From assembly GCA_018015315.1 (NCBI GenBank), contig GCA_018015315.1_3629.1: DNA of 64,000 nt. The stretch is one strand, 5' to 3'. Position 1 is the first letter of the stretch. The number at the start of each line of letters is the position of its first letter. The stretch comes from a phage. A program made the position numbers and the translations under genes. Of the stretch, positions 1 to 56,776 are shown one piece after another. Below the pieces are notes generated by a model that was not told where the DNA came from, did no database searches, and saw only the letters and a program-made list of their open reading frames with translations.

Positions 1-660
1 ATACTCACCTAGAGGGTGTGCGGCATTAAAGATGCACAGTGGACGGCTGACGTAATAGTCTCCGGGTGTATAAAAATTGTTGAGGTCTTTCACTAGAACA
101 TTCTTATCAGTCACTTCATTTATAACATCATGCATATCGCACATCTTTATATGTTTGAGGATTCCATCCCCCGTCACAAAATAAAAACTTGCTGAGACAC
201 TTTCGGCATAGATCTTACTAGATCCGTTGTAGTTGTATTTTACTCGGATGCTAACGGGGGTTTTTCCTGTCGCGTTAGCCATCATCCAAAGAAATGGCAG
301 CTCATACTTCTCCTCTGAGGAAACAAAAGGTGAGGTAGCCAGAGATCGAAAACCTCCAGAGAAGTTGAAAGTTACAGAACCGCTCCGGCGGTATGATACC
401 GCGTATTCTACTTTTATATCGACGTACCCATTGGAATAGGTGTGTCCTTCATTATCTAAATATGTCCACTTATCAGACCCAGATACCAATCTACGCTCAA
501 TAACCTTCATCACTACAGGAATTAGTGGGTTGGTACAAACCGCTTTTGAAGTAGCTTTATCATCTAAAGCCTCGTAAATTGCAGAAAGGATGTCCCCAGC
601 TGAAAGATTGGTTGTTATGTCCTGTTTCCACCGCGTACTAAAACTGTTAAGATTTGCCAT
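1..660 (-). CDS. hypothetical protein, 5' part only (continues past window start)
   Basis: Reverse-strand frame open for all 220 codons from ATG at 660 to the window edge; AGGAG-like RBS upstream at 667-671 on the minus strand. Not in the ORF track because no stop lies inside the window. Confidence 0.5.
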   Translation of the reverse strand, partial: MANLNSFSTRWKQDITTNLSAGDILSAIYEALDDKATSKAVCTNPLIPVVMKVIERRLVSGSDKWTYLDNEGHTYSNGYVDIKVEYAVSYRRSGSVTFNFSGGFRSLATSPFVSSEEKYELPFLWMMANATGKTPVSIRVKYNYNGSSKIYAESVSASFYFVTGDGILKHIKMCDMHDVINEVTDKNVLVKDLNNFYTPGDYYVSRPLCIFNAAHPLGEY

Positions 661-736
661 GAGGGAGTGCTCCTATGTTAGTTTTATTTCTAATGGGTGC
701 ACTATATCGGAGATTTAGAGTAAAGTCAACACGTTT

Positions 737-1780
737 TTGATGTTGACATCTATTGAAACAATTGATACGATTTCTTCACTTACAGAGCACGAGAGACAAC
801 TCATGAATCTTGAAAAATATTATACACCAGAAGAGTTAGAGCGCCTGCTCAAAAAATATAGACGCAAACAGAATAATGCACGGAAACGAGATATAGAGTT
901 CGACCTGTCATGGGAAGAATACCTCCTATTTGGTAAAAAACTTTTAGGAGATGGAGTATGCGACTATACCCTTATACCTTTTGACATGCACACAGATGAA
1001 AACGGGCTGGGAAATCCTTTCTACCCATCTCTGGAGCGGATAGATGATGAAGGTCCTTATGCGGTTGATAACTGTTGTGTAGTGGGATTGAGATGCAACT
1101 CTCTAAAGGACTGTCTGGTAGATAAAAAGACTGCAGTCTTGATTAAAGACGAAACTGATCGAAAAATTGTCCAGCAGATGATGCTCCACCTGAGCGAAGA
1201 GCGTATGGAGAAATTGAAAGGTGATTATACTTTTGAAGATTTCATCTTGCAATATGGAACGGAAGAGGATAAACTAGCACTCTTTGACGAAGAAGAGGAG
1301 GAAGATATGCTACCGATGTCTAAAGTTACTTATCGTGCACCCAAGAAGCACATTTCCGACATTGTAAACGAGCCTATCACAGAAGAGATTGAAGAAATGA
1401 CGCAACAGGTGCATGAAGAGGAAAAAGAGACTCAGGAGGTCGAAGAGGAGCTTACAGAAGAGGTTCCTGCACTACCTGATGATGTTGAGATTGCCAAAGC
1501 TTACACTTTCTATTGTCAAACGTTCTACGATGTAGGTATGAAAGTTGATCTGTCGTTCAGCCAATTTAAGAGTTCGTATATTCGCAAATGCTGTGCTTTA
1601 ACTGGTGAACGTCTTGGAGCTGGACTTAAACCCCTGTTGGTGACCGACTGGAATAAAGGTTTCACTAAAGGAAACTTTATGGTAGTATCTCCAATTATGG
1701 AGAAAGCTATGACAGATCTTATGAAGACCACCCGCATGACAATGACCGAGTTGGCAGGTATTTTCAAACACGTTAAATAA
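737..1780 (+). CDS. hypothetical protein with an internally duplicated Cys-containing domain and acidic linker
   Basis: 347-aa ORF; N-terminal segment (FDLSWEEY...GVCDYT) and C-terminal segment (VDLSFSQF...KCCALTGE) look like two copies of one domain, separated by an E/D-rich stretch. Exact start uncertain. Confidence 0.5.
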   Translation: MMLTSIETIDTISSLTEHERQLMNLEKYYTPEELERLLKKYRRKQNNARKRDIEFDLSWEEYLLFGKKLLGDGVCDYTLIPFDMHTDENGLGNPFYPSLERIDDEGPYAVDNCCVVGLRCNSLKDCLVDKKTAVLIKDETDRKIVQQMMLHLSEERMEKLKGDYTFEDFILQYGTEEDKLALFDEEEEEDMLPMSKVTYRAPKKHISDIVNEPITEEIEEMTQQVHEEEKETQEVEEELTEEVPALPDDVEIAKAYTFYCQTFYDVGMKVDLSFSQFKSSYIRKCCALTGERLGAGLKPLLVTDWNKGFTKGNFMVVSPIMEKAMTDLMKTTRMTMTELAGIFKHVK

Positions 1781-1792
1781 TGACAGGGGCCA

Positions 1793-3274
1793 ATGGCCCC
1801 TTCTGGAGTTTTAATGGATATCAGAAGTTCAGAAATCATTGCCTCACAAAAAGATGATGCCCTGAGAATGTTGCAGGCTGCACGTATGTATCTCCTTGAA
1901 AAGCTGCCGTTTTATGGCACACTGCTGTCAGGATTGCAGTTCGTAGAAAACCATACATGGTGCTCCACCATGGCAACCGACCATAAACGCATCTATTACA
2001 GTCCTGAGTTCATTATGGGGTTGGCTGATGAACGTAAGGCTATTCTTAAGGCTTCTCTAACTGACGAGCAGTTTGAGATGGCTGAGGTTTTCTATTCCCC
2101 CAAATCTGTGAAAGAGGTGGCCTTTCTTCTGTCGCATGAGGTGGGGCATATTATCTGTGATCACCTGGTCCGTGGTAAAAGCTTTGAGCCGGAACTGTTC
2201 AATATTGCTTGTGATCACGTTATCAACACAGGACTTGTGGTTGACTTTAGCAAGCCTCCTTGTGTTTTCTTCCCGAAGGGGAAAAGCACTACGTTCGTGA
2301 AAGGTAAGCCTTTTGGCTTCTTAGCCAGCTGCTACTGCGATATGAAGTTTCATGGATGGATTGCTGAGAACGTTTATGCAGTTCTTGATAAGCAAAGAGA
2401 TCAGAATAACGGTAAAAGTAAGAACGGTAAAGGTGAGAACTCTCAAGGTGATAAGCGACAAACAGATGATCACATGAGTGGGAACGGTGGCACCAGTGAT
2501 GATCTTGGAAAAGCTATAGGGTATGATCAGCCACAACCTGTAATCAGCCAATCTGATAAAGATCAGGCCATGCAGGACTCTGGTGATATGCTGGAGGCAG
2601 CAATGCAAGCGTCCGGAGGCCGTTGCCCCGAGGCGGTGCGTGAGTTTGTCAAGAACAGAGGTAAGCCTGTAATCAACTATATAGACATCATTAAGCAACG
2701 CATGTTGTCTAAACGAAAGGCTGAACTGACCTACAGAAAACCTGGTCGCCGATCTGGGTCTTTGACCAGCACAATGCGAAAAGTTGGGGCTATAAACAAG
2801 AACCAGCACGTTATTGTTCCTGGTCGTAATCCGGAAAACACTATAGATATTGTGGTGGCTTTAGACGTTTCTGGCTCGATCTCTCAAAGAACTTTAAAGA
2901 AAATGTTCAATGAAATCACCGGATTGTGCAATCTGTATAAAGAGTTTAAGGTTACAATGTTCTGTTGGTCAACTGAGGTTGGAGAGGTTAAAGTATACAC
3001 TCGCGGCAACATAGACGAGATGATTAACTATGAGGTCCACTCAACATGGGGCACAACAGCTGCTTGCGTGTTCGAGTATCTGGATGCCAACATACCGAAT
3101 GCAAAAGATGTCATCGTCCTGACCGACCTATACTTTGAGCATAACTTTGAACAAAAGGTTGTTGACAACAAGTGGAAAAAGTACGATACTTTATGGGTTC
3201 TAACCGAAGGGTATAATAAAAATTATATCCCGAGCTTTGGGAAAACTGTGGAATTAATCGAGTACGCTAAGTAA
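1793..3274 (+). CDS. putative Zn-metallopeptidase / von Willebrand A domain protein
   Basis: HExxH motif (SHEVGHIICDH) in the N-terminal half; vWA MIDAS-like motif DxSGS (LDVSGSIS) in the C-terminal half; 493 aa. Confidence 0.7.
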   Translation: MAPSGVLMDIRSSEIIASQKDDALRMLQAARMYLLEKLPFYGTLLSGLQFVENHTWCSTMATDHKRIYYSPEFIMGLADERKAILKASLTDEQFEMAEVFYSPKSVKEVAFLLSHEVGHIICDHLVRGKSFEPELFNIACDHVINTGLVVDFSKPPCVFFPKGKSTTFVKGKPFGFLASCYCDMKFHGWIAENVYAVLDKQRDQNNGKSKNGKGENSQGDKRQTDDHMSGNGGTSDDLGKAIGYDQPQPVISQSDKDQAMQDSGDMLEAAMQASGGRCPEAVREFVKNRGKPVINYIDIIKQRMLSKRKAELTYRKPGRRSGSLTSTMRKVGAINKNQHVIVPGRNPENTIDIVVALDVSGSISQRTLKKMFNEITGLCNLYKEFKVTMFCWSTEVGEVKVYTRGNIDEMINYEVHSTWGTTAACVFEYLDANIPNAKDVIVLTDLYFEHNFEQKVVDNKWKKYDTLWVLTEGYNKNYIPSFGKTVELIEYAK

Positions 3275-3289
3275 GAGAGGAGGTTATTT

Positions 3290-3553
3290 ATGGCAACAGA
3301 GTTAAAATTTGCATCAAACCGTAAAACTAAGAAGTATCTGTCCTCAGTAGCTCCAGGCACTGTGGTGATGTTTGTTGATGAACTTGGGGATGTGAATACA
3401 GCACTTGTTGTAAAATCACATCCTGCAAACATATATGTTGGGGTATTTGACCTGTTCAGAAAGGTGTTTGTAGAACTACCTCACAGTTTGGTTGTTACAG
3501 AAATGGATGCCTGCATAGAAATTCTTGGCGAAGTTATGGTGGAGGAACAATAA
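3290..3553 (+). CDS. small hypothetical protein, paralog 1 of a tandem array of four
   Basis: 87 aa; GAGGAGG RBS upstream; shares size and motifs (GTVV..., V.E.D..I.ILGE) with the next three ORFs. Confidence 0.6.
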   Translation: MATELKFASNRKTKKYLSSVAPGTVVMFVDELGDVNTALVVKSHPANIYVGVFDLFRKVFVELPHSLVVTEMDACIEILGEVMVEEQ

Positions 3554-3819
3554 TGGCTACTAGCATTGTATTCAATTCTAAGGTGAAGAACAAAAAGCGT
3601 GCAGACAGTTTTCCGTGTGGGACCGTGGTAAGTTGCGACGGAGACGGCATTCAAAACATAGTTATGATTGTCAAAACAGGAGAACATTGTGTGTGGGGGT
3701 TCGATTTAGAAAATAATGAGTTGTACGATCTGCCGCCAAACATGAAAGTTACAGAGCTTGACACCAAAATTACCATCCTTGGAGAGGCAAGCTATTCAAA
3801 AGAAGGAGGAGAACAATGA
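3553..3819 (+). CDS. small hypothetical protein, paralog 2
   Basis: 88 aa; start overlaps the previous stop (ATAATGG); same motifs as paralog 1. Confidence 0.6.
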   Translation: MATSIVFNSKVKNKKRADSFPCGTVVSCDGDGIQNIVMIVKTGEHCVWGFDLENNELYDLPPNMKVTELDTKITILGEASYSKEGGEQ

Positions 3820-4079
3820 CCACAAAAATCACTATCGCAGAACCGAAAGCTAACACTCAACCTATCGAAAAGTTTAAGTGCGGTGAGGTGGTAACATTCA
3901 CACCAGATAATGAAGATGCTAAGATTTTCGCAATGGTCACAGCTGAGTGGATGTGTGACAACACCACACAGGTTCTGCGTTTTGACACCTATCTTACCGA
4001 CGAAATCAGGAACGACAAGATCGTGACTGGTGTGGATACTGAGATTGTTTTCTACAAGAGCTTTTTAGAGGGTTTCTGA
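3816..4079 (+). CDS. small hypothetical protein, paralog 3
   Basis: 87 aa; ATGA start/stop overlap with paralog 2; CGEVV motif in the same position. Confidence 0.55.
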   Translation: MTTKITIAEPKANTQPIEKFKCGEVVTFTPDNEDAKIFAMVTAEWMCDNTTQVLRFDTYLTDEIRNDKIVTGVDTEIVFYKSFLEGF

Positions 4080-4080
4080 T

Positions 4081-4314
4081 ATGGCAAAAATTCGTAAATT
4101 ATCCAGCAATCAGGTTGTGAAAGACTTTGAATCTGGAGAGATTCTGTATGTTCGTGATGCAGATGACGAATGTGAAGATCTTGTTATGTTGGTGGGGCAC
4201 GCTGAGGACGGATGCATCCAAGCTGTTTTTCTTGAAACAGCTATGGTGCACTGGATAGAGCTGGACCTGAAAGCACGAAAACCTAAAGCAGAAATCCTGA
4301 TTTACGAAGATTAA
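4081..4314 (+). CDS. small hypothetical protein, paralog 4 (more diverged)
   Basis: 77 aa; similar size and acidic character, weaker similarity to the other three. Confidence 0.5.
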   Translation: MAKIRKLSSNQVVKDFESGEILYVRDADDECEDLVMLVGHAEDGCIQAVFLETAMVHWIELDLKARKPKAEILIYED

Positions 4315-4330
4315 CAAAAAGGAGAGAGCC

Positions 4331-4780
4331 GTGTTGAGCAAACGTGAATGCGACAGCATTAGCCTGAATTCTTATAAGAAACAATGGTTTGGAGTGGAAG
4401 TTTGCCGACTGCGGCTAGGCTCCTACCTGAACTTCGTTTATTATGAAAGCGATAGTCGTATCGTTTCTTATGAAGTGTTCTACACTAAGAACACCTTCGA
4501 ACTGCGCCGTAAAGTGGATGGTGGGAGAACTACCCCCCAGAATAATTGGGAAACTATCCTACCTACAGATGTTATAGGAAGTCCACTGAATGTATCTGAA
4601 GATGAAAATCTTATGGTTCATGCTATGATGGGACTTGACAGCTTAGAGCTGGCGATCTATGATATGTCCATCGAAGCAGTTAAGCTGGACTACATCGAAA
4701 ACACTTTAGAGGAAGGTATCAAGAAGTTTCTCAGTGAGAAATTAAAAGACCACTTTCATAAGGAGCTATACCTGTTATGA
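4331..4780 (+). CDS. hypothetical protein
   Basis: 149-aa ORF, GTG start with AAGGAGAGAG RBS; same strand and tight spacing as neighbours. Confidence 0.5.
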   Translation: MLSKRECDSISLNSYKKQWFGVEVCRLRLGSYLNFVYYESDSRIVSYEVFYTKNTFELRRKVDGGRTTPQNNWETILPTDVIGSPLNVSEDENLMVHAMMGLDSLELAIYDMSIEAVKLDYIENTLEEGIKKFLSEKLKDHFHKELYLL

Positions 4781-5022
4781 AGACCCGTAAAGAACGTAAC
4801 AAAATTTTACCTGGAGCTCTAGAACACCTGATGAAGTGCAGATCTATTTGGCACTCTGCCAAGGAAGGGCAGAAGGTGGTTGTGGTTAGTGACAATACCA
4901 ACCCGTTTGGAGATTATACCACTATGATGGCCCCGTATGTCCGTGATGGTGTTGTGGAAGTGGTCCCTTACAACGGTCTGCATGAACGGCACTTTGAAAG
5001 CACTTTGCTAGTGGAGCTATAG
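4777..5022 (+). CDS. hypothetical protein
   Basis: 81-aa ORF with start/stop overlap to the upstream gene. Confidence 0.45.
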   Translation: MKTRKERNKILPGALEHLMKCRSIWHSAKEGQKVVVVSDNTNPFGDYTTMMAPYVRDGVVEVVPYNGLHERHFESTLLVEL

Positions 5023-5024
5023 TC

Positions 5025-5591
5025 ATGGCGGTCAATGTGGCTTACAACACAGGAAAGCTTGACAGAGACATTGGGTGTCTTGTCCTTTCAGATACAGAAG
5101 AGTATTGGGGTTATGGGTTGCTGTCAGACCCACACCCGAGCAACCTTGTATCAACAGTGCTATACCGCTACGACCCTGTGCCAACGGTACACGACAAAGA
5201 CATTCACGACCTCCGGATCAAGTGTCTGGAAGATCTGCTGAACAATGGTTGCAACGATCTGCGGGTAGCCAAAGAGAAGCTTACAAACATTCACAAAGAG
5301 GAAGTGATGAGCACCCTCAGTAAGAGATCAGTGCACAAAAAGATGATGCTGAACTTTGCAATGGGTATCTACATGGACGGGTATAAGGGAGGTGATCCGA
5401 TTCTCAAGCTTCGCTGCCCAACACTGTGGGAAAGAGTGGTTGACAGTAAGGACGGTACTGCCCTGCTTGAGCTACACACTGCAGGTTGGATTTGGAGGTA
5501 TGTGGACGGATACCCTCTGTGGGCATGTGGACCTGGGGAATTTGTTGACAGACCTAGCGCGGTGGTGGACTTACTATTGCAGTTTGAATAA
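5025..5591 (+). CDS. hypothetical protein
   Basis: 188-aa ORF in the operon frame series; shorter overlapping ORFs in other frames judged spurious. Confidence 0.5.
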   Translation: MAVNVAYNTGKLDRDIGCLVLSDTEEYWGYGLLSDPHPSNLVSTVLYRYDPVPTVHDKDIHDLRIKCLEDLLNNGCNDLRVAKEKLTNIHKEEVMSTLSKRSVHKKMMLNFAMGIYMDGYKGGDPILKLRCPTLWERVVDSKDGTALLELHTAGWIWRYVDGYPLWACGPGEFVDRPSAVVDLLLQFE

Positions 5592-5648
5592 AAAGGTGAG
5601 TTATAAGGTATTCATACACCTACCAACAATACAACAGGAGAGACTGAG

Positions 5649-5924
5649 ATGACGAAAGAAGAGGCCGACGTATTAGATTTTGCACTAGAGGCTACGCAGG
5701 AGGCTTTGGTGTTAGCTTGGAAAATGAACCAGCGTGCTGCAGAATGCAACCGCCGCATCAATGAGATTCTGGGCATGTCCATGTATGATTTCACTATGCA
5801 TGCTGGAGAGATTCCTGAATTAACTGCAGAGATGAATGATCTTGACAATAAGATTAATATCATTCTGAAGACAGCAGAAACAACTCACCAAACCGCCCGT
5901 AAATTTATCAACGAGAAGGTGTGA
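5649..5924 (+). CDS. hypothetical protein
   Basis: 91-aa ORF; AGGAGAGA RBS upstream. Confidence 0.5.
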   Translation: MTKEEADVLDFALEATQEALVLAWKMNQRAAECNRRINEILGMSMYDFTMHAGEIPELTAEMNDLDNKINIILKTAETTHQTARKFINEKV

Positions 5925-6400
5925 ATATGGACTACAGCTACTGCGGGGAAGAAGTTCCTTTTAACTACAGCAATCTTACCACGAGCAATCCATATGAGAC
6001 TCGCCACGGCACACACATCATTGCCATTGACTTTGATGGAACGTTTAATGCGAGCCCTTTCATCTTCTCCCGCCTGATCAGGGATCTGAAGAAGGAGAGG
6101 TGGACAGTCTACCTTGTGACTTCTCGGTTCATCACTCAAGACAACGTGGACATTGAATATTGGCGCAAGGAGCTTGATGTTGGGGTGTTTTATACTGGCG
6201 GTGTTCAGAAGGCAGCCTACCTGGCGCAGTTTGATATCTACCCAGATATCTGGATTGATGATTCTCCGGCATGTATTCCGGCTAAAAATCAGTTAGAGTT
6301 TGCAATGAAGGAGATTGAGTACAAGTCTGATGCTAAGCGGAACGGATGGCCCTTTATTATTGAAGATTACCCAGACCCTGAGCCGGAGAAAGAGCCATGA
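5921..6400 (+). CDS. HAD-superfamily phosphatase (putative nucleotidase or 3'-phosphatase)
   Basis: HAD motif I DxDGT (IAIDFDGTF), motif II (VYLVTSR), motif IV (IWIDDS); 159 aa. Confidence 0.65.
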   Translation: MNMDYSYCGEEVPFNYSNLTTSNPYETRHGTHIIAIDFDGTFNASPFIFSRLIRDLKKERWTVYLVTSRFITQDNVDIEYWRKELDVGVFYTGGVQKAAYLAQFDIYPDIWIDDSPACIPAKNQLEFAMKEIEYKSDAKRNGWPFIIEDYPDPEPEKEP

Positions 6401-6567
6401 AACGAAGATATCATTACCTGATGTGGAAGTTATATCATGGTGCTGCTAAAGCTTACCGCACCGTGTTTAGCAATGACAATCACTGCATTATGTTACACCT
6501 TACCGCCATTAAACATCACAATGAGTGGATTCGTGCAATCGTGATAGGTGACAAAGACTTTAAGTAA
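6397..6567 (+). CDS. small hypothetical protein (56 aa)
   Basis: ATG overlaps the stop of the HAD gene (ATGA); open to TAA at 6565-6567; below the track size cutoff. Confidence 0.3.
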   Translation: MKRRYHYLMWKLYHGAAKAYRTVFSNDNHCIMLHLTAIKHHNEWIRAIVIGDKDFK

Positions 6568-6618
6568 GGTATGCCTCAAAAACGTAATAGTGTGGCTTTC
6601 TAGATGGAGACTGACTAA

Positions 6619-6999
6619 ATGTGCAAGTGTAAATCATATAATTGGAAAGTGAAAGGTGCCAAGCATCCAAATGTTATCGTTGATGTGCCTAAAAAGCTCC
6701 GTGACGGCAAAAAACGTGTGTGCCTTGATAAGTGCATGGCTAAACCTATCATGAGTCTATGGGCGGCAGGATTGAAAACTCTAAACTGCTGCTGTGGTCA
6801 TAACAAAGATGTTCCAAGCATCATTATCCCAGAAGATGCAGATCCTAAAGCTTATGCCAAAATACTGACCCGCTATCCCAGCACCTTCCTGATCGGAAAA
6901 TGGTGTCACGATGAACTTCAATGGTGGATAGCCTATGGTAGTATAGGCACTACTTTTGGCTTCCCAGCTTTGTCAGAGCGCTATGTCAAAGTGTCATAA
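6619..6999 (+). CDS. Cys-rich hypothetical protein (possible Zn-binding)
   Basis: 126-aa ORF with CKCK, CLDKC and CCCGH cysteine clusters. Confidence 0.5.
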   Translation: MCKCKSYNWKVKGAKHPNVIVDVPKKLRDGKKRVCLDKCMAKPIMSLWAAGLKTLNCCCGHNKDVPSIIIPEDADPKAYAKILTRYPSTFLIGKWCHDELQWWIAYGSIGTTFGFPALSERYVKVS

Positions 7000-7007
7000 T
7001 AGAATTT

Positions 7008-7028
7008 AAGGCCTCAAACGAGGCCTGT
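7008..7028 (+). terminator. putative hairpin terminator after the 6619..6999 gene
   Basis: AGGCCTC-AAAC-GAGGCCT perfect 7-bp stem; downstream T-tract is weak. Confidence 0.35.
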
Positions 7029-7103
7029 GCCTTCATAAATTGCCCCACCCTATGTGATTGCCTTCCTGAAACAAACACCCTCTTAAATCGCTTAAAATTA
7101 AGC

Positions 7104-7132
7104 TTGACATCAACGCAGAATTTTTATATGAT
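7104..7132 (+). promoter_or_regulatory. sigma70-like promoter
   Basis: TTGACA (7104-7109), 17-bp spacer, TATGAT (7127-7132); about 30 bp upstream of the 7163 start. Confidence 0.55.
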
Positions 7133-7162
7133 TATCCCACCAACCAAGCAGAGGAGACTGTC

Positions 7163-7570
7163 ATGGATAATCTTACAAATATAAAAGTCGAAATTGTTAA
7201 GCTAAAATTCTTAGGCTTTCGAGACCCCAGCTCTATAACAGCTATAATCATGGATACCCATTTTACAGCAGGCAAGGAATACACTGCCGTCCGTTATACT
7301 TGCGGGGATCATAAATCTGCCTACAGTGTTAATACAAACCTCGGTGAGGGATATTTTATCCGTGATATTACGGATCATTTGTGGGGAATGTGGGAGTTGG
7401 TGAAGGAAGAGGGTAACTCACTCCCCAAAGAGATTTGGGTGCATACCTTCCACACAGGTAAGTTTGGAGGCACGGAACATAAATCTATTCACTACGATGA
7501 AGAAAGCGCCCTCAAGCAACAAGCTGTTCTTGGCGGGTCTGTAGAAAAATTTATTAAATGCGAGGACTGA
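7163..7570 (+). CDS. hypothetical protein
   Basis: 135-aa ORF downstream of the promoter; AGAGGAG RBS. Confidence 0.55.
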   Translation: MDNLTNIKVEIVKLKFLGFRDPSSITAIIMDTHFTAGKEYTAVRYTCGDHKSAYSVNTNLGEGYFIRDITDHLWGMWELVKEEGNSLPKEIWVHTFHTGKFGGTEHKSIHYDEESALKQQAVLGGSVEKFIKCED

Positions 7571-7573
7571 TAA

Positions 7574-7774
7574 ATGGCTGATTTTTGTAAAGACTGTTCT
7601 GAAGAGTTGTTTGGTCACGATTGCGGAGATCTGGAAGGACTAATCACAGAAGATCAGTGGAAGGAAGGTTATGCAGCACCTGTTATCTGCGAAGGTTGCG
7701 GCTATATCTACGTTGACCACAAAGGTAAACGCGTCCAGCCGTCTGAAGATGGGTCGTGTTGGGAATATTATTAA
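7574..7774 (+). CDS. small Zn-ribbon-like protein
   Basis: 66 aa with CxxC...CxxC (CKDC, CEGC). Confidence 0.5.
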   Translation: MADFCKDCSEELFGHDCGDLEGLITEDQWKEGYAAPVICEGCGYIYVDHKGKRVQPSEDGSCWEYY

Positions 7775-7786
7775 TTATAAAAAGAA

Positions 7787-7810
7787 AGGGGCCGTTTGGC
7801 CCCTTTTTAT
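7787..7810. terminator. bidirectional rho-independent terminator between convergent genes
   Basis: AGGGGCC-GTTT-GGCCCCT stem flanked by A-tract on one side and T-tract on the other, so a U-run follows the hairpin on both strands. Confidence 0.7.
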
Positions 7811-7820
7811 TTACCCTCCG

Positions 7821-10800
7821 TTAACGAGAGAAAGTTGCATAAGCTTCAAGATCATACTGCTGATCACCAGGAAGCATGGCACCTATGGAGCCAAACCCCA
7901 TGACCCTGCCTTCTACTGCCAACTGCAGTCTGAACCCTACCCATCCGGAACTTCTTGCAGCCTCGATGTTATCGCTATACCCGAAAGTAGCAAGCTCGTC
8001 AACTCCAGATCCGAACAGCAACTGGATCTGATTTCTCGGAAGCCCTATAATTTCAGGAATATATGCTCCGAAGTACACCATTTGCCCTACTTTAGGACCG
8101 CTGCCATACTCCATCGGTCTGCTTGCAGAGAAAGTCTTCATTCCTGAAGTCCCTGCCGGATTTGGGTATGCCCCGTTTGTTGCTCTGCCTATCCACATTC
8201 TCCACTGTGGTGTCATCTGTTTGACAGTGAAAGATGTTGAAGACGTCTTGCGGCCTGCATCATCCGTAACTACAAACGTTATGTTGACATTACCGGGCGC
8301 TTTAAATGTTACCAGTCCTGTGTTAGCATCAACAGTTGCTATGCCAGTATTACTACTTTCCCAAGTCTTTCTGATCCCTGTTACGTTGGAAGGGGTGATA
8401 GAGGGTTCCTGCATCTGCAGTTTACCGCCAACAATACCTATGCCATTGCCAGGGTTATACAACACCCCAACCTCATCTACAATATTCCCAGCCTTGAGGC
8501 TGTATTTTCTTGAGAAGTTGTAGGTTCCGTTATAAGTATGTGTCCCTGAGAATGTGACATCGGCCTTGCCGTGGGAGATGCAAACCAAAGCATACTTCCT
8601 GTCAGGCAATGTAGCCCCGGTCTCTGGGTGAGTTTTACCCACTTGGAACACGCCAGGATCGGTAGAGTCGTGGCTATCCCTGATAGAGCTTGGACCACCC
8701 ATTAACTGAGACAAGCAATCCCTTACCCACGTCCAGTTATTATCACTGGAGAAGTCAACAGTCAAATCAAACACAACCCACTCGTTAGGCTTCCAAACAG
8801 GTGTTGTAATAGACTTGCCTACGCCACCACCCTGAAGGGTAGATGACTGCTCAGTGATCAATGCTGCATAAGCCAAAGTCCCTAAACGCAAGGTCTGGCT
8901 TGCGGTTCTCACCACCTTAGAATCGGCATCTGTGAAGTTGTTGATAACCTGGAAGGTGCCATAAGTGTTTTTACAGGTGATTCTTGCATTCAGTGTGTCA
9001 ATCTTTCTCACATCTGCCATGGCAGTGTTAGACACAGAGAAGTCAGAAGCTTTGGCTGAGTTTGCTGCAACAACCGGAACAACGTTAAGAGTTGCGTTGA
9101 ACTGGCAAGCAGGAGTAACCAGCAGCCTGTTATCACCTATTTGCTTCCATGAAACACTTTGAACAGGTAGATTCCATTTGATACCTGAGAAAACTTTAGC
9201 AACCCTTGGTCCCAGAGCTCCAGTCCTGTTGTCTTTACAACACATAGACATGGTGATCGTTGACGGAGTGGCCTGACCAAACAATTGCTGTGCTTTTGCA
9301 GAAGACATGGTGTAGAAATTGTCCTTAACAAACTCATCAGCTGCTAACGATCCGTCAGATTTCCACCACTGCACCTGATACCCTGTCTTATCCCAGCCCC
9401 CAACCTGCTTCAAGTCTTCCCAAGAGATTTCCAGATCTCCCGTGGTAGGATTGATTGCAGCAGTCCCTGGTGTGCCGGATGACCACAATGGAATATCGAA
9501 CCACGCTGGTTTAACAGATTGCACTGCGTTAGGACCTATTGCAGCAGCAAGTTGTTGGCCCATCAATACGCGAGCATCTTTTACCAGACCCCACTCAATC
9601 ATGGATCCAGAGTAACCTTCTTTCTTGTAGGCCGAGGATCCGTTTAAGTGGATAAGTCTGCTTGTGCCGAAGTTATACGCTCCACCACCGTTGTCGTCTG
9701 CAAAGTTGTACACAATTCTATCCCTGGTGTCTTTCCACGCTCTACCACCTATTTCATAGTTGTGGTCATAGCAACGTTGCAGTGTTGTCCAGCAAATGAT
9801 AGCCATCCTTCTGCCATTGCTGAAGCCGAAGGCATTATCGTTAAGCTCTCTCCACAAATAGCAGTTGGTAGTCCACATGGCTCTGTGGATGTTAAACCAG
9901 TTGACAGATCTTGCAGCATTGTTGTAGTCGGTTCCCTCTAGAGTAGGCCACACTGCATTAACCAGCATGTCTTCTGTCCCCGCATCCATCAGGAATCCTC
10001 TTACCTTTTTACCCATTCCTACTCTGTCTTTAGCAATCCAGCTGCCAAACAGTCTCAGTTTGGGGCCAATAACAGTTTCCTCCGGATGCTCAAGAGAAAC
10101 ATATTTCAAGTGTACTGTAGGATCACCATAGGTGCCATCGCAGACACTTTTGTGCATGTTTTCACCAAGGTCCAGACGAATACCTGTAAGAGTTTTTGTG
10201 TTGTCTGTGAGTTTGTCTGTCAAGTCAAACTCATACCACCACCATCCAGCACCTAACAATACCTTCTTACAACGCTGTGCATCTGTATCAGATATTCTCT
10301 TATCCCCTGCAAAAGGCGAATCTGCAAATTGGTAGTGCAGAGCAATTTCAAACGGGTGTGTTGATGTTCCGTTTTCAGCAGGAACTTGCTTACCTATCAG
10401 GTCGCACTTAATGATCATCACGACACGTCTGTATCCATTGGCTACCGGAACGTCGAACGGATACTTCTCTCCGTTCATATTTGCATGGACAGACGAGAAG
10501 ACTATATACGGGTCAACAGCATTACCCAGGGTTTCAGGACCAGGGATCATTTTGTATTTCTTGACTTGCCCCATAATATAGTCGCTGCCATAGGTTGCAG
10601 CCTCGAAGCAAGATCCCCCGTTAGGTAGTTCCCCCGGACCCCAGAAAAATGCGCCATAACAGTTATAAAACCACTTGTTAGGGTCGTATTTGTTCTTGAA
10701 GGTCTGAACCTCGTTGGCCTGTTTTGTCAAGAAAACCTGCGTATCTGTGAAGATTGCAGGGTTTACTCTCGCCTGACGCGGAGGGTAACCTGTAGTCTGG

Positions 10801-13457
10801 TTAAACCACTGATTACAAGAGATATCTCTCATATAGTCATAATCGGAATATTTGTTTGCATCTTCGTTCCAACACAGGTTCAGGTTGGTGCCGCCCATGC
10901 ACACAATATATTCTGTGACATATTTATCACTTCTGGTTGGGATTCCTATGAACCATCTGTTAACAGGCTCGTCCCAAGCTGTCCGCTCATCTTTAACGCA
11001 GATAGCGATCCAGTCATGTGTTCCTGTTTTCTTGCACACATCGCGCTTCATACCATAATAAAACTCTTTAGTATTTGGCTCAGGTGCATTTATCAGGTAA
11101 CTCCACGCCTGATTTGCATAGGTTCCATTGGTGCGAGGATCATGGTCAAAGGCATACATGATGATCCTTTCTCCACCAAGATGTTCACCGAGGGTAACTT
11201 TGATGTTTACATCACCGTAACCGTTACGAACTATATCCATATTGTCAATAGAGATGCCTCTAGGGGTGTAGGCAATTTTCAGAGAACTATCTTCACTGGT
11301 ACCACCCAGAGTAATACCTATATTGTTTGTTGTTCCATCAACATATTTTACTGTAGCTTCCCAACGTATCCCGAAATACCCTGCGTTGTGGCTAACAACT
11401 TTCAGTGTGCGAGCACCTGGGTGAGGCTTACCAGGATCAGGCCATGGATCAGCATGCTCGTGCACTGTTAACGATGTTCCGTTCTGCTCGTTAACCTGCA
11501 GCATCTTCCCGCCTTTGCCGTTAGGGTTGAACTCCCACAAGGCTTGTGTTTTCACAAGATTGTCATAGATACTGCGTCTCTGGTCGTAGATCTCCTGGGT
11601 CACATCATACGTGGTAGATCCGGCATCTTGCCTGTGAAGCCTAACCATATATGCTGTATCGCTTTCTGGAGCAGGCTGAGAGCCGTTAAGCCCAAAGTAT
11701 ACAGTATCGTTTACATGGAACTGTTTCTTCCTGCCAACAGTGTGCCATTTGCCGTCTGACGGATATGCAGGAACTATAATGTTCCAGTTTAAGTTTCGTG
11801 TGGTGTGGGTTCTTCCAGCGCCATGTTTATCATGATAGGTGATCTTGACAGAATACAGACCGCGTCTGTTGATGTTACGGTTATGCTGGGTAACCACAAT
11901 CTCGTTAGCACCGCCATGGTTCCAGTTAGTAGAGAACTGATAGTTTGCATCTGTAACAACAGTACCTGCAGCGTTCACGAGCTCAATCTTGTCAATAATG
12001 AACGTAGCACCCTCCGGTTGAGGTTTCAACTTCATTTTGACAGTGTCGCCAATGTATATATTGCTAACACTGCTTACACCATTGACATCAAAGATGTCTT
12101 CGATACTCCAGCTATCTACCGGAACATTTTTATACCAATTCTCAGGAATCTCTGTGAACCCTTGGCTGTTAAGTCTGCCGCCGAACAGGTTATTAGATCC
12201 TGAAAAACTACCACGTGGTATTCCTGACCACCAAAGCTTTCCATTTACCACACAGAATGTGCCTAAGAAACCTTCCCTGTGGATCCCTTGAAAATAAACG
12301 CTTTCTGTCCAGCTTACTGGCTCTGTCTGTTCAACAAACTTAGCTGTTGCCAGCGCTCTGTAATGAATAAAATTGGCCCTAGGATTATTATTAGCAGATT
12401 GAGCACCAATATCGTTACACAGGTTTCTGGAGAAACCACGGTACTGTTTTGTACCATTATTGAAGAAAATTCCACTAGTCCCGTACCCGCGAGCCATAAT
12501 TACTTCATGGGTATAGGTGATGTTAAGGCTTCTCCACGTGTCGTCACCCCAAACATCCTGACCATAAAACACATTAACAAGTTGTTGGTCATCAGGTTTG
12601 TGCATCCTTTCTGTGGCTATAATTGCCCCGTTAGGACCACACATAAACCCTTTCCACTCCTCATCTGCAGGAATGCCTCTCAAATCGTTACGAGTAATCT
12701 GCACAGGAGGCCAAACAAGGTCGTTTCTATTGTTATTTCTCAGAAAGTCGTATCCAGCAATCCAGAAACCTCTAGGACCACCGAAAATAACAGAGTTGTC
12801 ATGCACCTCGCAGTTGATGCTTGGGTTTTTCCAAGGTCCTGTTTCAGGATTTTCCGATGTCTCACCAATCTTTACAGGGGTTGCATGCTGATTTTTATCT
12901 ACATGCAAAGATCCGTAGGTGTTGTTACCAGATCCATATAGGTTAAGTATGCCAGTGCCTTCTGCCTCTGCAATAACCCAGACAGTGTTGTTAATACCAC
13001 CCATCACCTCAATAAGGCGCTCTGGGTGGGTGTCAAGGTGCAACCCTTTAACAATCTGTTCCGGAAGAGGTGTCCACTCGTTTACGCAAACATCATTACC
13101 GCCTGCCGCAGTGGATCCGATAAGACCTGCAGTGCAGCCGATGTAGAAAAACTGGTTATCAAAAGTCCGGATCACAAACGCACGGTCTGCTCTCCACACA
13201 TGATCAACATTCCAGGCTGTTTCGCTTGGGTAGTTTATAGGGTTACGATCCCCAGTGCGACACTCCCCGAACTTGTTATAGCCCGTAATATTAAGCTGAC
13301 CATCATCAAAAAGTATAGCTAAGCTATTTACATAGGATACTGTGTTGCTTGTACCATCACTGTTGTCTATTGGGTATGACAGAACAGCAAGTTCCTTAAT
13401 TCCACCCCTCTTATCGAGGAAATGACGACCAAGTTTTAGCAAAGGGATTGGAAGCAT
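7821..13457 (-). CDS. giant tail fiber / virion-associated protein (1878 aa)
   Basis: 5.6 kb ORF at the distal end of the tail-fiber block; bacterial Ig-like segment near the C-terminus; GGAG RBS upstream. Confidence 0.65.
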   Translation of the reverse strand: MLPIPLLKLGRHFLDKRGGIKELAVLSYPIDNSDGTSNTVSYVNSLAILFDDGQLNITGYNKFGECRTGDRNPINYPSETAWNVDHVWRADRAFVIRTFDNQFFYIGCTAGLIGSTAAGGNDVCVNEWTPLPEQIVKGLHLDTHPERLIEVMGGINNTVWVIAEAEGTGILNLYGSGNNTYGSLHVDKNQHATPVKIGETSENPETGPWKNPSINCEVHDNSVIFGGPRGFWIAGYDFLRNNNRNDLVWPPVQITRNDLRGIPADEEWKGFMCGPNGAIIATERMHKPDDQQLVNVFYGQDVWGDDTWRSLNITYTHEVIMARGYGTSGIFFNNGTKQYRGFSRNLCNDIGAQSANNNPRANFIHYRALATAKFVEQTEPVSWTESVYFQGIHREGFLGTFCVVNGKLWWSGIPRGSFSGSNNLFGGRLNSQGFTEIPENWYKNVPVDSWSIEDIFDVNGVSSVSNIYIGDTVKMKLKPQPEGATFIIDKIELVNAAGTVVTDANYQFSTNWNHGGANEIVVTQHNRNINRRGLYSVKITYHDKHGAGRTHTTRNLNWNIIVPAYPSDGKWHTVGRKKQFHVNDTVYFGLNGSQPAPESDTAYMVRLHRQDAGSTTYDVTQEIYDQRRSIYDNLVKTQALWEFNPNGKGGKMLQVNEQNGTSLTVHEHADPWPDPGKPHPGARTLKVVSHNAGYFGIRWEATVKYVDGTTNNIGITLGGTSEDSSLKIAYTPRGISIDNMDIVRNGYGDVNIKVTLGEHLGGERIIMYAFDHDPRTNGTYANQAWSYLINAPEPNTKEFYYGMKRDVCKKTGTHDWIAICVKDERTAWDEPVNRWFIGIPTRSDKYVTEYIVCMGGTNLNLCWNEDANKYSDYDYMRDISCNQWFNQTTGYPPRQARVNPAIFTDTQVFLTKQANEVQTFKNKYDPNKWFYNCYGAFFWGPGELPNGGSCFEAATYGSDYIMGQVKKYKMIPGPETLGNAVDPYIVFSSVHANMNGEKYPFDVPVANGYRRVVMIIKCDLIGKQVPAENGTSTHPFEIALHYQFADSPFAGDKRISDTDAQRCKKVLLGAGWWWYEFDLTDKLTDNTKTLTGIRLDLGENMHKSVCDGTYGDPTVHLKYVSLEHPEETVIGPKLRLFGSWIAKDRVGMGKKVRGFLMDAGTEDMLVNAVWPTLEGTDYNNAARSVNWFNIHRAMWTTNCYLWRELNDNAFGFSNGRRMAIICWTTLQRCYDHNYEIGGRAWKDTRDRIVYNFADDNGGGAYNFGTSRLIHLNGSSAYKKEGYSGSMIEWGLVKDARVLMGQQLAAAIGPNAVQSVKPAWFDIPLWSSGTPGTAAINPTTGDLEISWEDLKQVGGWDKTGYQVQWWKSDGSLAADEFVKDNFYTMSSAKAQQLFGQATPSTITMSMCCKDNRTGALGPRVAKVFSGIKWNLPVQSVSWKQIGDNRLLVTPACQFNATLNVVPVVAANSAKASDFSVSNTAMADVRKIDTLNARITCKNTYGTFQVINNFTDADSKVVRTASQTLRLGTLAYAALITEQSSTLQGGGVGKSITTPVWKPNEWVVFDLTVDFSSDNNWTWVRDCLSQLMGGPSSIRDSHDSTDPGVFQVGKTHPETGATLPDRKYALVCISHGKADVTFSGTHTYNGTYNFSRKYSLKAGNIVDEVGVLYNPGNGIGIVGGKLQMQEPSITPSNVTGIRKTWESSNTGIATVDANTGLVTFKAPGNVNITFVVTDDAGRKTSSTSFTVKQMTPQWRMWIGRATNGAYPNPAGTSGMKTFSASRPMEYGSGPKVGQMVYFGAYIPEIIGLPRNQIQLLFGSGVDELATFGYSDNIEAARSSGWVGFRLQLAVEGRVMGFGSIGAMLPGDQQYDLEAYATFSR

Positions 13458-55960: not shown

Positions 55961-56037
55961 TGGTCTCCACGGAGTGATTCGAACACTCGACCTCCTGATC
56001 CCAAATCAGGCGCTCTACCAAGCTGAGCTACGCGGAG
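55961..56037 (-). tRNA. tRNA-Pro (anticodon UGG)
   Basis: Hand-folded cloverleaf: acceptor CTCCGCG/CGTGGAG, D-stem GCTC/GAGC, anticodon stem CCTGA/TCAGG, loop TTTGGGA, T-arm GAGTG-TTCGAAT-CACTC, CCA encoded. Confidence 0.75.
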
Positions 56038-56048
56038 TATTTACTATT

Positions 56049-56123
56049 TGGTGGCCCTGGGTGGAATTGAACCACCGTCTGGCGATTATGAGTCGCTTGC
56101 TTGAACCTTCCAGCTACAGGGCC
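56049..56123 (-). tRNA. tRNA-Met (anticodon CAU; could be Ile-lysidine type)
   Basis: Acceptor GGCCCTG/CAGGGCC, anticodon loop CTCATAA, T-arm GGTGG-TTCAATT-CCACC, CCA encoded; D-stem only 3 bp. Confidence 0.65.
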
Positions 56124-56124
56124 T

Positions 56125-56200
56125 TGGTGCTGATGGCAGGACTTGAACCTGCAACATATTGATTACAAATCAATTGCACTACCAATTGTGCTACATCAGC
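56125..56200 (-). tRNA. tRNA-Thr (anticodon UGU)
   Basis: Perfect cloverleaf: acceptor GCTGATG/CATCAGC, D-stem GCAC/GTGC, anticodon stem ATTGA/TCAAT, loop TTTGTAA, T-arm GCAGG-TTCAAGT-CCTGC, CCA. Confidence 0.8.
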
Positions 56201-56205
56201 AAAAA

Positions 56206-56304
56206 GGTGCTAGGTGATGGAATCGAACCATCTATGTATTCAACGACTACCTCGTCTATTTTCAGGATTAAAAATCCTCGCCCTTGCCAAAGGGCTTACC
56301 TAGC
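56206..56304 (-). tRNA. atypical tRNA-like gene (possible anticodon UUU, ~30-nt extra region)
   Basis: Perfect acceptor (GCTAGGT/ACCTAGC), D-arm (GCCC-TTTGGCAA-GGGC) and T-arm (GATGG-TTCGATT-CCATC), but 4-bp anticodon stem and an unusually long region before the T-arm. Confidence 0.4.
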
Positions 56305-56402
56305 TCAGTATGTTGACCATGTTGCTAGTCGGCGATGACGACTGTAACATTTGATAATCCGGTTCTGCTTCCGGCTTTCGCTTAATTACAAGGTCAACAA
56401 TG

Positions 56403-56493
56403 TGGCAGAGGATAATGGAATCGAACCATCATCGAGTCATCCTCAACGGGACGGTTTTCAAGACCGCTTGAGCACCATTGCTCCCTACCCTCT
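56403..56493 (-). tRNA. tRNA-Ser (anticodon UGA), long variable arm
   Basis: Anticodon arm GCGGT-CTTGAAA-ACCGT, variable-arm hairpin, T-arm GATGG-TTCGATT-CCATT, acceptor AGAGGGT/ATCCTCT with one G-U pair, CCA encoded; D-arm spacing unusual. Confidence 0.6.
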
Positions 56494-56610
56494 TTTATTA
56501 TAAACAATACTGATAATGACACTGATTTTCGAGCAGTTAGTGACTAGTATAAACGACGATAAATACCAATGCCATTATCTGTATGATTTATGCATCTAAA
56601 AATATAAATT

Positions 56611-56697
56611 TGGTGGGGAGTGGTGGAGTCGAACCACCCGAGTCGCAATGACAATAGATTTACAGTCTACACCGCTACCTCTACGGGATAACTCCCC
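56611..56697 (-). tRNA. tRNA-Tyr (anticodon GUA), long variable arm
   Basis: Acceptor GGGGAGT/ACTCCCC, anticodon arm GTAGA-CTGTAAA-TCTAT, T-arm GGTGG-TTCGACT-CCACC, CCA encoded. Confidence 0.7.
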
Positions 56698-56701
56698 AAT
56701 T

Positions 56702-56776
56702 TGGCACCCCGTACTGGACTCGAACCAGTGTCAACGGCTTAGAAGGCCGCTGCTTTATCCACTAAGCTAACAGGGC
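56702..56776 (-). tRNA. tRNA-Arg (anticodon UCU)
   Basis: D-stem GCTT/AAGC, anticodon arm GCGGC-CTTCTAA-GCCGT, T-arm ACTGG-TTCGAGT-CCAGT, CCA encoded. Confidence 0.75.

Follow-up and report, generated by a model that had tools for sequence, protein, structure and literature searches.

A zincin-vWA fusion gene of an rV5-like phage and the pairing of its family with MoxR-type ATPase genes

We analysed a window of 64,000 nt of phage DNA (contig GCA_018015315.1_3629.1 of the GenBank assembly GCA_018015315.1), focusing on the gene at 1793..3274 (+), which is the orthologue of rV5 gene 12 and N4 gp25-like. Its longest open reading frame (ORF) has 493 aa, to which all residue numbers refer, and joins a zincin-like metallopeptidase domain to a von Willebrand factor A (vWA) domain. 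Genes of this peptidase-vWA family are paired with genes for MoxR-type AAA+ ATPases in bacteria and in four phage groups, and for the window the partner has to be sought just beyond its left edge. Bases 1-8000 of the window match 122 phage records (megablast), 113 of which show at least 80% query coverage at 90-96% identity. The matching records are Vequintavirus (rV5-like) myoviruses, e.g., Murica, LL12, JLBYU08, Gotham and EdH4. The window shares gene order with JLBYU08, Gotham and rV5 (co-linear, about 96% DNA identity); its position 1 corresponds to position 6001 of the JLBYU08 locus (L001).

The original prediction for this stretch had described a fusion of an HExxH motif with the MIDAS motif (for metal ion-dependent adhesion site) of a vWA domain. 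Both motifs lie inside curated Pfam domains and are conserved, i.e., they are not chance occurrences. DUF2201_N ('putative metallopeptidase domain') matches residues 95-321 with 98.9 bits (cut-off 23.2, E=5e-28) and is followed C-terminally by DUF2201 ('VWA-like') at residues 353-488 with 43 bits (cut-off 26.4, E=5.9e-11); the two account for the entire length of the protein. Judged by its sequence, it is a member of the DUF2201_N/DUF2201 two-domain family of N4 gp25-like proteins ('predicted metal-dependent peptidase').

The zincin-like domain (DUF2201_N) comprises about residues 9-335 (1817..2797, +). It holds the HExxHxxxxH metal-binding/catalytic motif as HEVGHIICDH (H115, E116, H119, H124; 2135..2164, +), whose first part, HEVGH, covers residues 115-119 (nt 2135-2149). 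A139-C-D141 (2207..2215, +) follows, with D141 on the helix after the HExxH helix. D141 is a candidate for the third metal ligand or for a catalytic helper, so that together with H124 there are two invariant candidates for the third ligand. Inside the same domain, a low-complexity loop rich in Gly, Asp and Lys (residues about 206-250; 2408..2542, +) is predicted to be disordered; its length varies throughout the family, as seen from alignment gaps. Between the two domains lies a basic linker motif, ELTYRKPGRRSG (2723..2758, +), modelled with a predicted local distance difference test (pLDDT) of 54-80. Its consensus TYxRPxRR (residues 313-320) is near-invariant: among 203 family members, residue 319 is R/K in 193 and residue 320 in 199. 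The vWA domain (DUF2201) covers about residues 346-493 (2828..3271, +) and carries the MIDAS signature DxSxS as DVSGS (residues 358-362 with D358, S360 and S362; 2864..2878, +) as well as the other MIDAS residues T421 (nt 3053-3055, +) and D445 (nt 3125-3127, +).

Conservation was assessed at several depths. A homologue search of the database found 58 proteins, all with DUF2201_N and nearly all with DUF2201. Within an alignment of 45 sequences (21-82% identity), T59, H115, E116, H119, H124, A139 and D141 are invariant in the N-terminal part, and D358, S360, S362, G420, T421 and D445, i.e., a complete MIDAS, in the vWA part; the Vequintavirinae proteins show additional helical and loop insertions in the zincin domain. 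Of the 203 members, 195 have an intact HExxH, 198 all five MIDAS residues and 190 both, while D141 is kept in all 203. Overall, HExxH, H124, D141 and the complete MIDAS reach 94-100% conservation in this set; the positions of the HExxHxxxxH motif are conserved in 195-201 and the general-base Glu of HExxH in 196. The family is very large. Searching its profile against 1.84 billion representatives of 50%-identity clusters brings up 33,421 members when E<=1e-3 is required and 14,252 when the limit is E<=1e-30.

Three of the 203 members are over-long. One has an N-terminal extension and a Gln/Gly-rich insert; the two others, the metagenomic proteins P0171 and P0125, carry independent inteins with canonical Cys...His-Asn|Cys boundaries. 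The insertion points are HEVLH|CVYEH (inside HExxH|xxxxH) and, for P0125, NQA|CD(141)YVIN (A|xD141). In P0171 a LAGLIDADG_3 domain is matched with 47.7 bits, the Hint and intein-splicing matches being sub-threshold. Inteins typically occupy functional centres, and since they are inserted here exactly at the invariant motifs, these motifs fit an active site.

For the full-length protein, the AlphaFold2 model has a mean pLDDT of 84.6, with a disordered loop at residues 208-235 (pLDDT <50). Fold searches with it returned only vWA matches, with the VWA domain of NorD as the top Foldseek match. Because these matches swamped the list, residues 1-335 were modelled alone (pLDDT 86.2, predicted TM-score 0.80). 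In this N-terminal model the HExxH sits on helix 106-122 after three short strands, and the fold neighbours, which include Wss1, deuterolysin, ArdC, ZMPSTE24, Spartan and the botulinum light chains, are peptidases in the great majority. The family profile shows weak matches to selecase, BepA and HtpX (M48 and minigluzincin peptidases) around the HExxH helix. When the protein was compared as a single sequence with those of the PDB, no informative match came up. According to the model, the HExxH thus lies on the active-site helix of a zincin-like fold; a location outside any peptidase fold would have counted against the original prediction. The N-terminal domain is thus a zincin of divergent type, for which no closely related structure has been solved. 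This also holds in comparison with the small zincins (aspzincins M35, the minigluzincins selecase and projannalysin, Wss1/SprT, the C-terminal domain of ArdC, M48/M56), none of which is a close solved homologue. The window domain differs from them by HExxHxxxxH with an invariant Asp 22 residues after the second His, by large helical elaborations and by the disordered loop. The spacing of its motif is not known to follow either the metzincin (HExxHxxGxxH) or the aspzincin pattern. The domain would be expected to act as a peptidase.

These data bear on two other readings of the protein. First, it could be part of a chaperone or metal-insertion machine as in NorQD, CobST, BchID and CoxDE, where an AAA+/vWA pair would remodel a target; the HExxHxxxxH/D141 domain would then bind metal, recognise the target or be an HExxH enzyme of non-proteolytic type. 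We regard this as unlikely, given the general-base Glu kept in 196/203 members, the predominance of peptidases among the structural neighbours, the Pfam description as putative metallopeptidases and the weak M48/minigluzincin profile matches. Second, the protein could be an HNH endonuclease. It matches PHROG 1314, labelled 'HNH endonuclease', end to end (E=6e-123), and the label is also found in many GenBank and RefSeq records, among them the annotations of MiataMamis, KE22, YH30 and N4 gp25. We rejected this candidate and give it practically no credence: there is no HNH Pfam match, DUF2201_N and DUF2201 cover the full length, and the folds are zincin-like and vWA. The PHROG label looks like a propagated mis-annotation. 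It has spread through phage records, e.g., NC_008720 gp25 (the RefSeq entry of N4), PP925834 and PP856721, while other records label the family 'anti-sigma factor' or 'DNA repair ATPase'. In practice, PHROG 1314 therefore spreads a wrong annotation up to RefSeq N4 gp25.

With regard to a partner, the original prediction had noted that the HExxH/vWA architecture usually goes with MoxR-type ATPases, which is borne out by the pairing seen in bacteria and phages. It had further stated that no AAA+ partner is adjacent to the peptidase-vWA gene. Within the 64-kb window this is true, i.e., no AAA+ homologue is found either by tblastn (E>0.1) or by a hidden Markov model (HMM) of the ATPase. The conclusion drawn from it, namely that the phage may use a host ATPase or that the protein may act alone, does not hold up, because co-linear relatives encode the ATPase just beyond the left edge; it is most likely a window-edge artefact. 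In JLBYU08, a 394-aa 'putative MoxR ATPase' is annotated at 2978-4162 (-) of L001, which corresponds to window coordinates -3022 to -1838. Seen from the peptidase-vWA gene, it is on the opposite strand and 3.6 kb upstream, which places it 1.8-3.0 kb to the left of where the window starts, a position known from the relatives of which the window ends short; the layout is identical in Gotham. For rV5, Table S3 of Kropinski et al. 2013 (PMC3606486) labels gene 4 'MoxR - ATPase', while the gene 12 product, with PF13203, is entered there as a hypothetical protein that is conserved.

The relatives' ATPase was assigned to its group by profile and residues. Taken alone, the rV5-type sequence stays below every Pfam AAA threshold, and a single-sequence PDB search yields only P-loop-level matches to Clp proteins. 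It is, however, clearly homologous to three ATPases encoded just upstream of a peptidase-vWA gene: the AAA/AAA_5 protein of Sulfurivermis fontis, with 31% identity (E=7e-37), that of an N4-like Sulfitobacter phage, with 29% (E=6e-18), and N4 gp24, whose gene directly precedes that of gp25, with 27% (E=2.8e-28). The rV5-type, bacterial and N4-like ATPases all fall into PHROG 1297. Bacterial members match Pfam AAA_5 (3e-11) and bpMoxR (4e-5), and the best solved relative of the ATPase profile is the midasin/Rea1 AAA ring (E=1.9e-15). In an alignment of seven ATPases, Walker A (GxxGxGKS), Walker B (DE), N146, R147, R164 and R220 are invariant, the latter four of which fit, by position in the alignment, sensor 1, arginine finger and sensor 2. 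By profile match and intact catalytic residues, the relatives' ATPase belongs to the MoxR/AAA_5 (helix-2-insert) group. Membership in a known defence system was rejected as well: PADLOC gave no match for the peptidase-vWA protein and only P-loop-level matches (E>5e-4) for the ATPases. NCBIfam holds no family for either protein.

We then compared gene order across genomes. HMM scans found both genes in 13 of 14 fetched loci that contain a peptidase-vWA gene, the exception being a contig that ends 570 bp upstream of the gene. In gammaproteobacteria, N4-like phages, Certrevirus and the jumbo phage SE_PL, the two genes are direct neighbours that read in the same direction. One marine metagenomic phage contig (L011) has both on one strand with about 1 kb between them, whereas in Vequintavirus and Seunavirus they are divergent, with a distance of 3.6-4.2 kb. 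By tblastn, 632 phage records encode the peptidase-vWA protein and 813 encode the ATPase; if >=95% identity is required, the numbers are 119 and 118, respectively, compared to the 122 records matching the region. Among the 203 family members, no 'Rosetta-stone' fusion of ATPase and peptidase-vWA protein was found.

Given this pairing, we consider it very improbable that the protein acts alone or through a host MoxR-type ATPase in a phage without its own partner. The absence of an AAA+ homologue inside the window speaks for that reading; the cognate ATPase just outside it in co-linear relatives, which accompanies the family in bacteria and four phage groups, speaks against it, and the gene-neighbourhood data have already largely refuted it. 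In addition, the text on a Keio host-factor screen with LL12, whose peptidase-vWA protein is 99.2% identical to that of the window, does not name ravA, viaA or MoxR, which is weak negative evidence.

A further reading is that the two proteins help to assemble the virion or another large complex, as proposed for a MoxR ATPase and vWA proteins in the tail development of the archaeal virus ATV. MoxR-vWA coupling in that tail system is cited in PMC7159879, large tail-fibre genes start 4.5 kb downstream of our gene, and structural genes lie near the gp24/25 homologues of roseophage RPP1 (PMC4193335). Against this, the gene is part of a non-structural operon that also contains an Srd-like gene, mass spectrometry provides no evidence for rV5 gp4 or gp12 in the virion (PMC3606486), the pair is located among nucleotide-metabolism genes in N4-likes and jumbo phages, and the module also occurs in free-living bacteria. 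On balance, a role in assembly seems improbable to us.

As to the neighbourhood itself, the bacterial module (L002, L003-5 and L012, gammaproteobacteria) is found in a conserved gene order, namely HSP15 (S4 domain), thioredoxin, AAA, DUF2201, a protein of about 370 aa and ferrochelatase. The genes rIIA and rIIB occur within a few kb of the ATPase gene both in rV5-like phages (L001 58-4162) and in N4 (L015 3939-14076), which could be a loose synteny of early/middle genes or a coincidence.

Within the window, the peptidase-vWA gene is the second gene of a rightward operon, which is equivalent to rV5 genes 11-26 and consists of an Srd-like gene, the peptidase-vWA gene and small ORFs. The operon is preceded by a sigma70-like promoter, TTGACA-17-TACGAT with TG (743..771, +); the equivalent site is annotated in Gotham (PhagePromoter). 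Back to back with it lies the sigma70-like promoter of a leftward operon, TTGACT-17-TATAGT (701..729, -), also annotated in Gotham. This agrees with the bidirectional promoters placed between genes 10 and 11 of rV5 (PMC3606486). The Srd-like gene (803..1780, +; rV5 gp11; PHROG 3118, 4592 and 1400; PMC3606486) encodes a putative anti-sigma factor. The first gene of the leftward operon (rV5 gp10, 299 aa, labelled 'fucosyltransferase' in some records) is cut by the window edge, i.e., only its 5' part is present (1..660, -). The operon runs out of the window and, in the relatives, has the ATPase as its 7th gene, 6 genes beyond gp10. Since the promoters are divergent and sigma70-like and the neighbouring gene is Srd-like, an early-region setting and an early co-expression of the ATPase and peptidase-vWA genes are plausible on sequence grounds. 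In N4, the homologous genes are classed as middle (PMC4193335). Both -35 boxes are spanned by an inverted repeat at 725-747 whose arms measure 8 bp (GTCAACAC / GTGTTGAC-like); it may be an operator or a mere consequence of two facing TTGAC boxes.

The true start of the peptidase-vWA gene is probably ATG 1814, which gives 486 aa. This is suggested by the GGAG at 1804-1807 preceding it, by the location of ATG 1793 within the hairpin AGGGGCCAATGGCCCCT (1785-1801), in which it is buried, and by the use of the shorter form both in P0001 (the representative of a 536-member cluster) and in the Gotham annotation. The hairpin (1785..1801) is perfect and GC-rich, with 7-bp arms AGGGGCC and GGCCCCT around AAT, and is placed between the stop codon of the Srd-like gene and the ribosome-binding site of the peptidase-vWA gene. 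It could be an attenuator, an RNA-processing site or an element of translational coupling. In the rV5 reference record DQ832317 (2013 annotation), gene 12 is shortened to 441 aa and overlaps with the next gene, gene 13 (81 aa), where the relatives carry one 486/493-aa ORF. This suggests a frameshift or a sequencing error in DQ832317.

Taken together, we favour, with some reservation, the reading that the peptidase-vWA protein is the adaptor/effector half of a two-protein, phage-encoded AAA+/vWA machine of MoxR type, whose motor is the 394-aa ATPase (rV5 gp4, N4 gp24-like). In such a machine, both operons would fire early in infection from the back-to-back promoters, and the ATPase would assemble as a hexameric ring. 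The vWA domain would dock on this ring, as NorD does on NorQ, CbbO on CbbQ, or the MIDAS domain on the Rea1/midasin ring, and the MIDAS-bound divalent cation would grip an acidic residue of the target protein. ATP-driven movement could then be relayed via the vWA domain and the linker, and the fused zincin (HExxHxxxxH and D141) would cut the captured or remodelled target. Ring, docking, capture and cleavage are proposed by analogy with NorQ/NorD. For this couple it is described that the vWA domain closes the AAA+ hexamer like a plug, its finger reaching into the central pore, that the MIDAS binds carboxylates on the target surface, and that ATP hydrolysis remodels a linker in the vWA protein (PMC9976466, PMC13036017).

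The known systems differ from the rV5-like pair in various aspects. The closest one is N4 gp24 (AAA ATPase) and gp25 (vWFA protein), i.e., a homologous pair that belongs to the core genes of N4-like phages (Schitoviridae). Gp25 matches the family profile with E=1.8e-83 and the window protein with 21.5% identity (E=5.5e-20), both proteins having HExxHxxxxH and DxSGS. While the N4 genes are adjacent, co-directional and described as middle, the rV5-like genes belong to divergent operons, each with a sigma70-like promoter, and are separated by 3.6 kb. No function is assigned to gp24 or gp25 in PMC4193335 and PMC2784036. The bacterial AAA_5 plus DUF2201_N/DUF2201 module (Sulfurivermis fontis; Thioalkalivibrio Tgr7_2285, the best match of rV5 gp12 in 2013 according to PMC3606486) shares the architecture and the family of the partner ATPase, but is encoded by adjacent chromosomal genes and shows only about 22-25% identity to the phage protein.

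NorQ/NorD, like CbbQ/CbbO and RavA/ViaA, likewise combines a AAA+ protein of the MoxR/AAA_5 group with a C-terminal vWA domain bearing an intact MIDAS. The N-terminal domain of the vWA protein is thought to give target specificity (PMC9976466). In contrast to the studied MoxR/vWA couples, this N-terminal module is a zincin in the window protein. Its vWA domain is furthermore minimal (about 145 aa), and a pore-inserting finger, as present in NorD, was neither identified nor excluded. Midasin/Rea1, which is both the best solved sequence relative of the ATPase and, with its MIDAS domain, among the fold matches of the window protein, also combines modules of AAA_5 type with a MIDAS domain, by which an acidic residue of the substrate is gripped. 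It is, however, a eukaryotic protein in which six AAA modules are united in one giant chain that lacks a peptidase, whereas the rV5-like parts are two small proteins.

A coupling of AAA+ motor and protease is known from FtsH and Lon, the protease of FtsH also being an HExxH zincin. There, motor and protease form one fusion and the substrates pass through the pore as a thread, while in the window protein the zincin is joined to the vWA adaptor. For MoxR-type rings, such threading of substrates is thought not to occur (PMC9976466). More tentatively, and with clearly less confidence than for the two-protein machine as such, the ATPase and the peptidase-vWA protein might thus form a new kind of split AAA+ protease with its zincin on the MIDAS adaptor instead of the motor. 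Cleavage would be aimed at proteins captured via an acidic residue and exposed by ATP-driven remodelling. Such a protease might be deployed early in at least four phage lineages, i.e., Vequintavirinae, N4-like, jumbo and uncultured marine phages, where its target could be a specific host protein, to be destroyed or processed (takeover or counter-defence), or a phage protein that needs maturation. If true, an ATP-coupled protease fused to its adaptor would extend the AAA+ protease repertoire by a new design and be a candidate tool of host takeover.

Public records already carry annotations of the gene, of its domains and of its partner, i.e., the finding itself is not new: rV5 gene 12 was recognised as DUF2201_N in 2013 and is called 'putative metallopeptidase' in many records. 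We found no functional study of the DUF2201 family, the rV5 pair or N4 gp24/gp25 in the literature, and in those parts of the CRISPRi-ART paper covered by our text search, a study using the close relative EdH4, neither MoxR nor vWA nor metallopeptidase is mentioned. The remaining interest lies in a very large phage module, core in N4-like phages and conserved in rV5-like and jumbo phages, for which we found no experimental characterisation.

Some further features of the window were observed. Directly 3' of the peptidase-vWA gene, four small tandem ORFs (87, 88, 87 and 77 aa; 3290-4314, +) are mutual paralogues. The last three show 39%, 19% and 17% identity to the first, and all share M-A-T, CGxVV and VTExD motifs (PHROG 10698). 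An ORF of 1878 aa (7821-13457, -; rV5 gp27 with Big_2/Ig-like domains) opens a leftward structural block, and a strong hairpin at 7785-7806 is the terminator between the convergent units. Finally, a tRNA cluster at 55961-56776 (-) comprises Pro, Met, Thr, Ser, Tyr and Arg tRNAs together with a 99-nt ARAGORN call 'tRNA-???' with a four-base anticodon (atcc) at 56206-56304.

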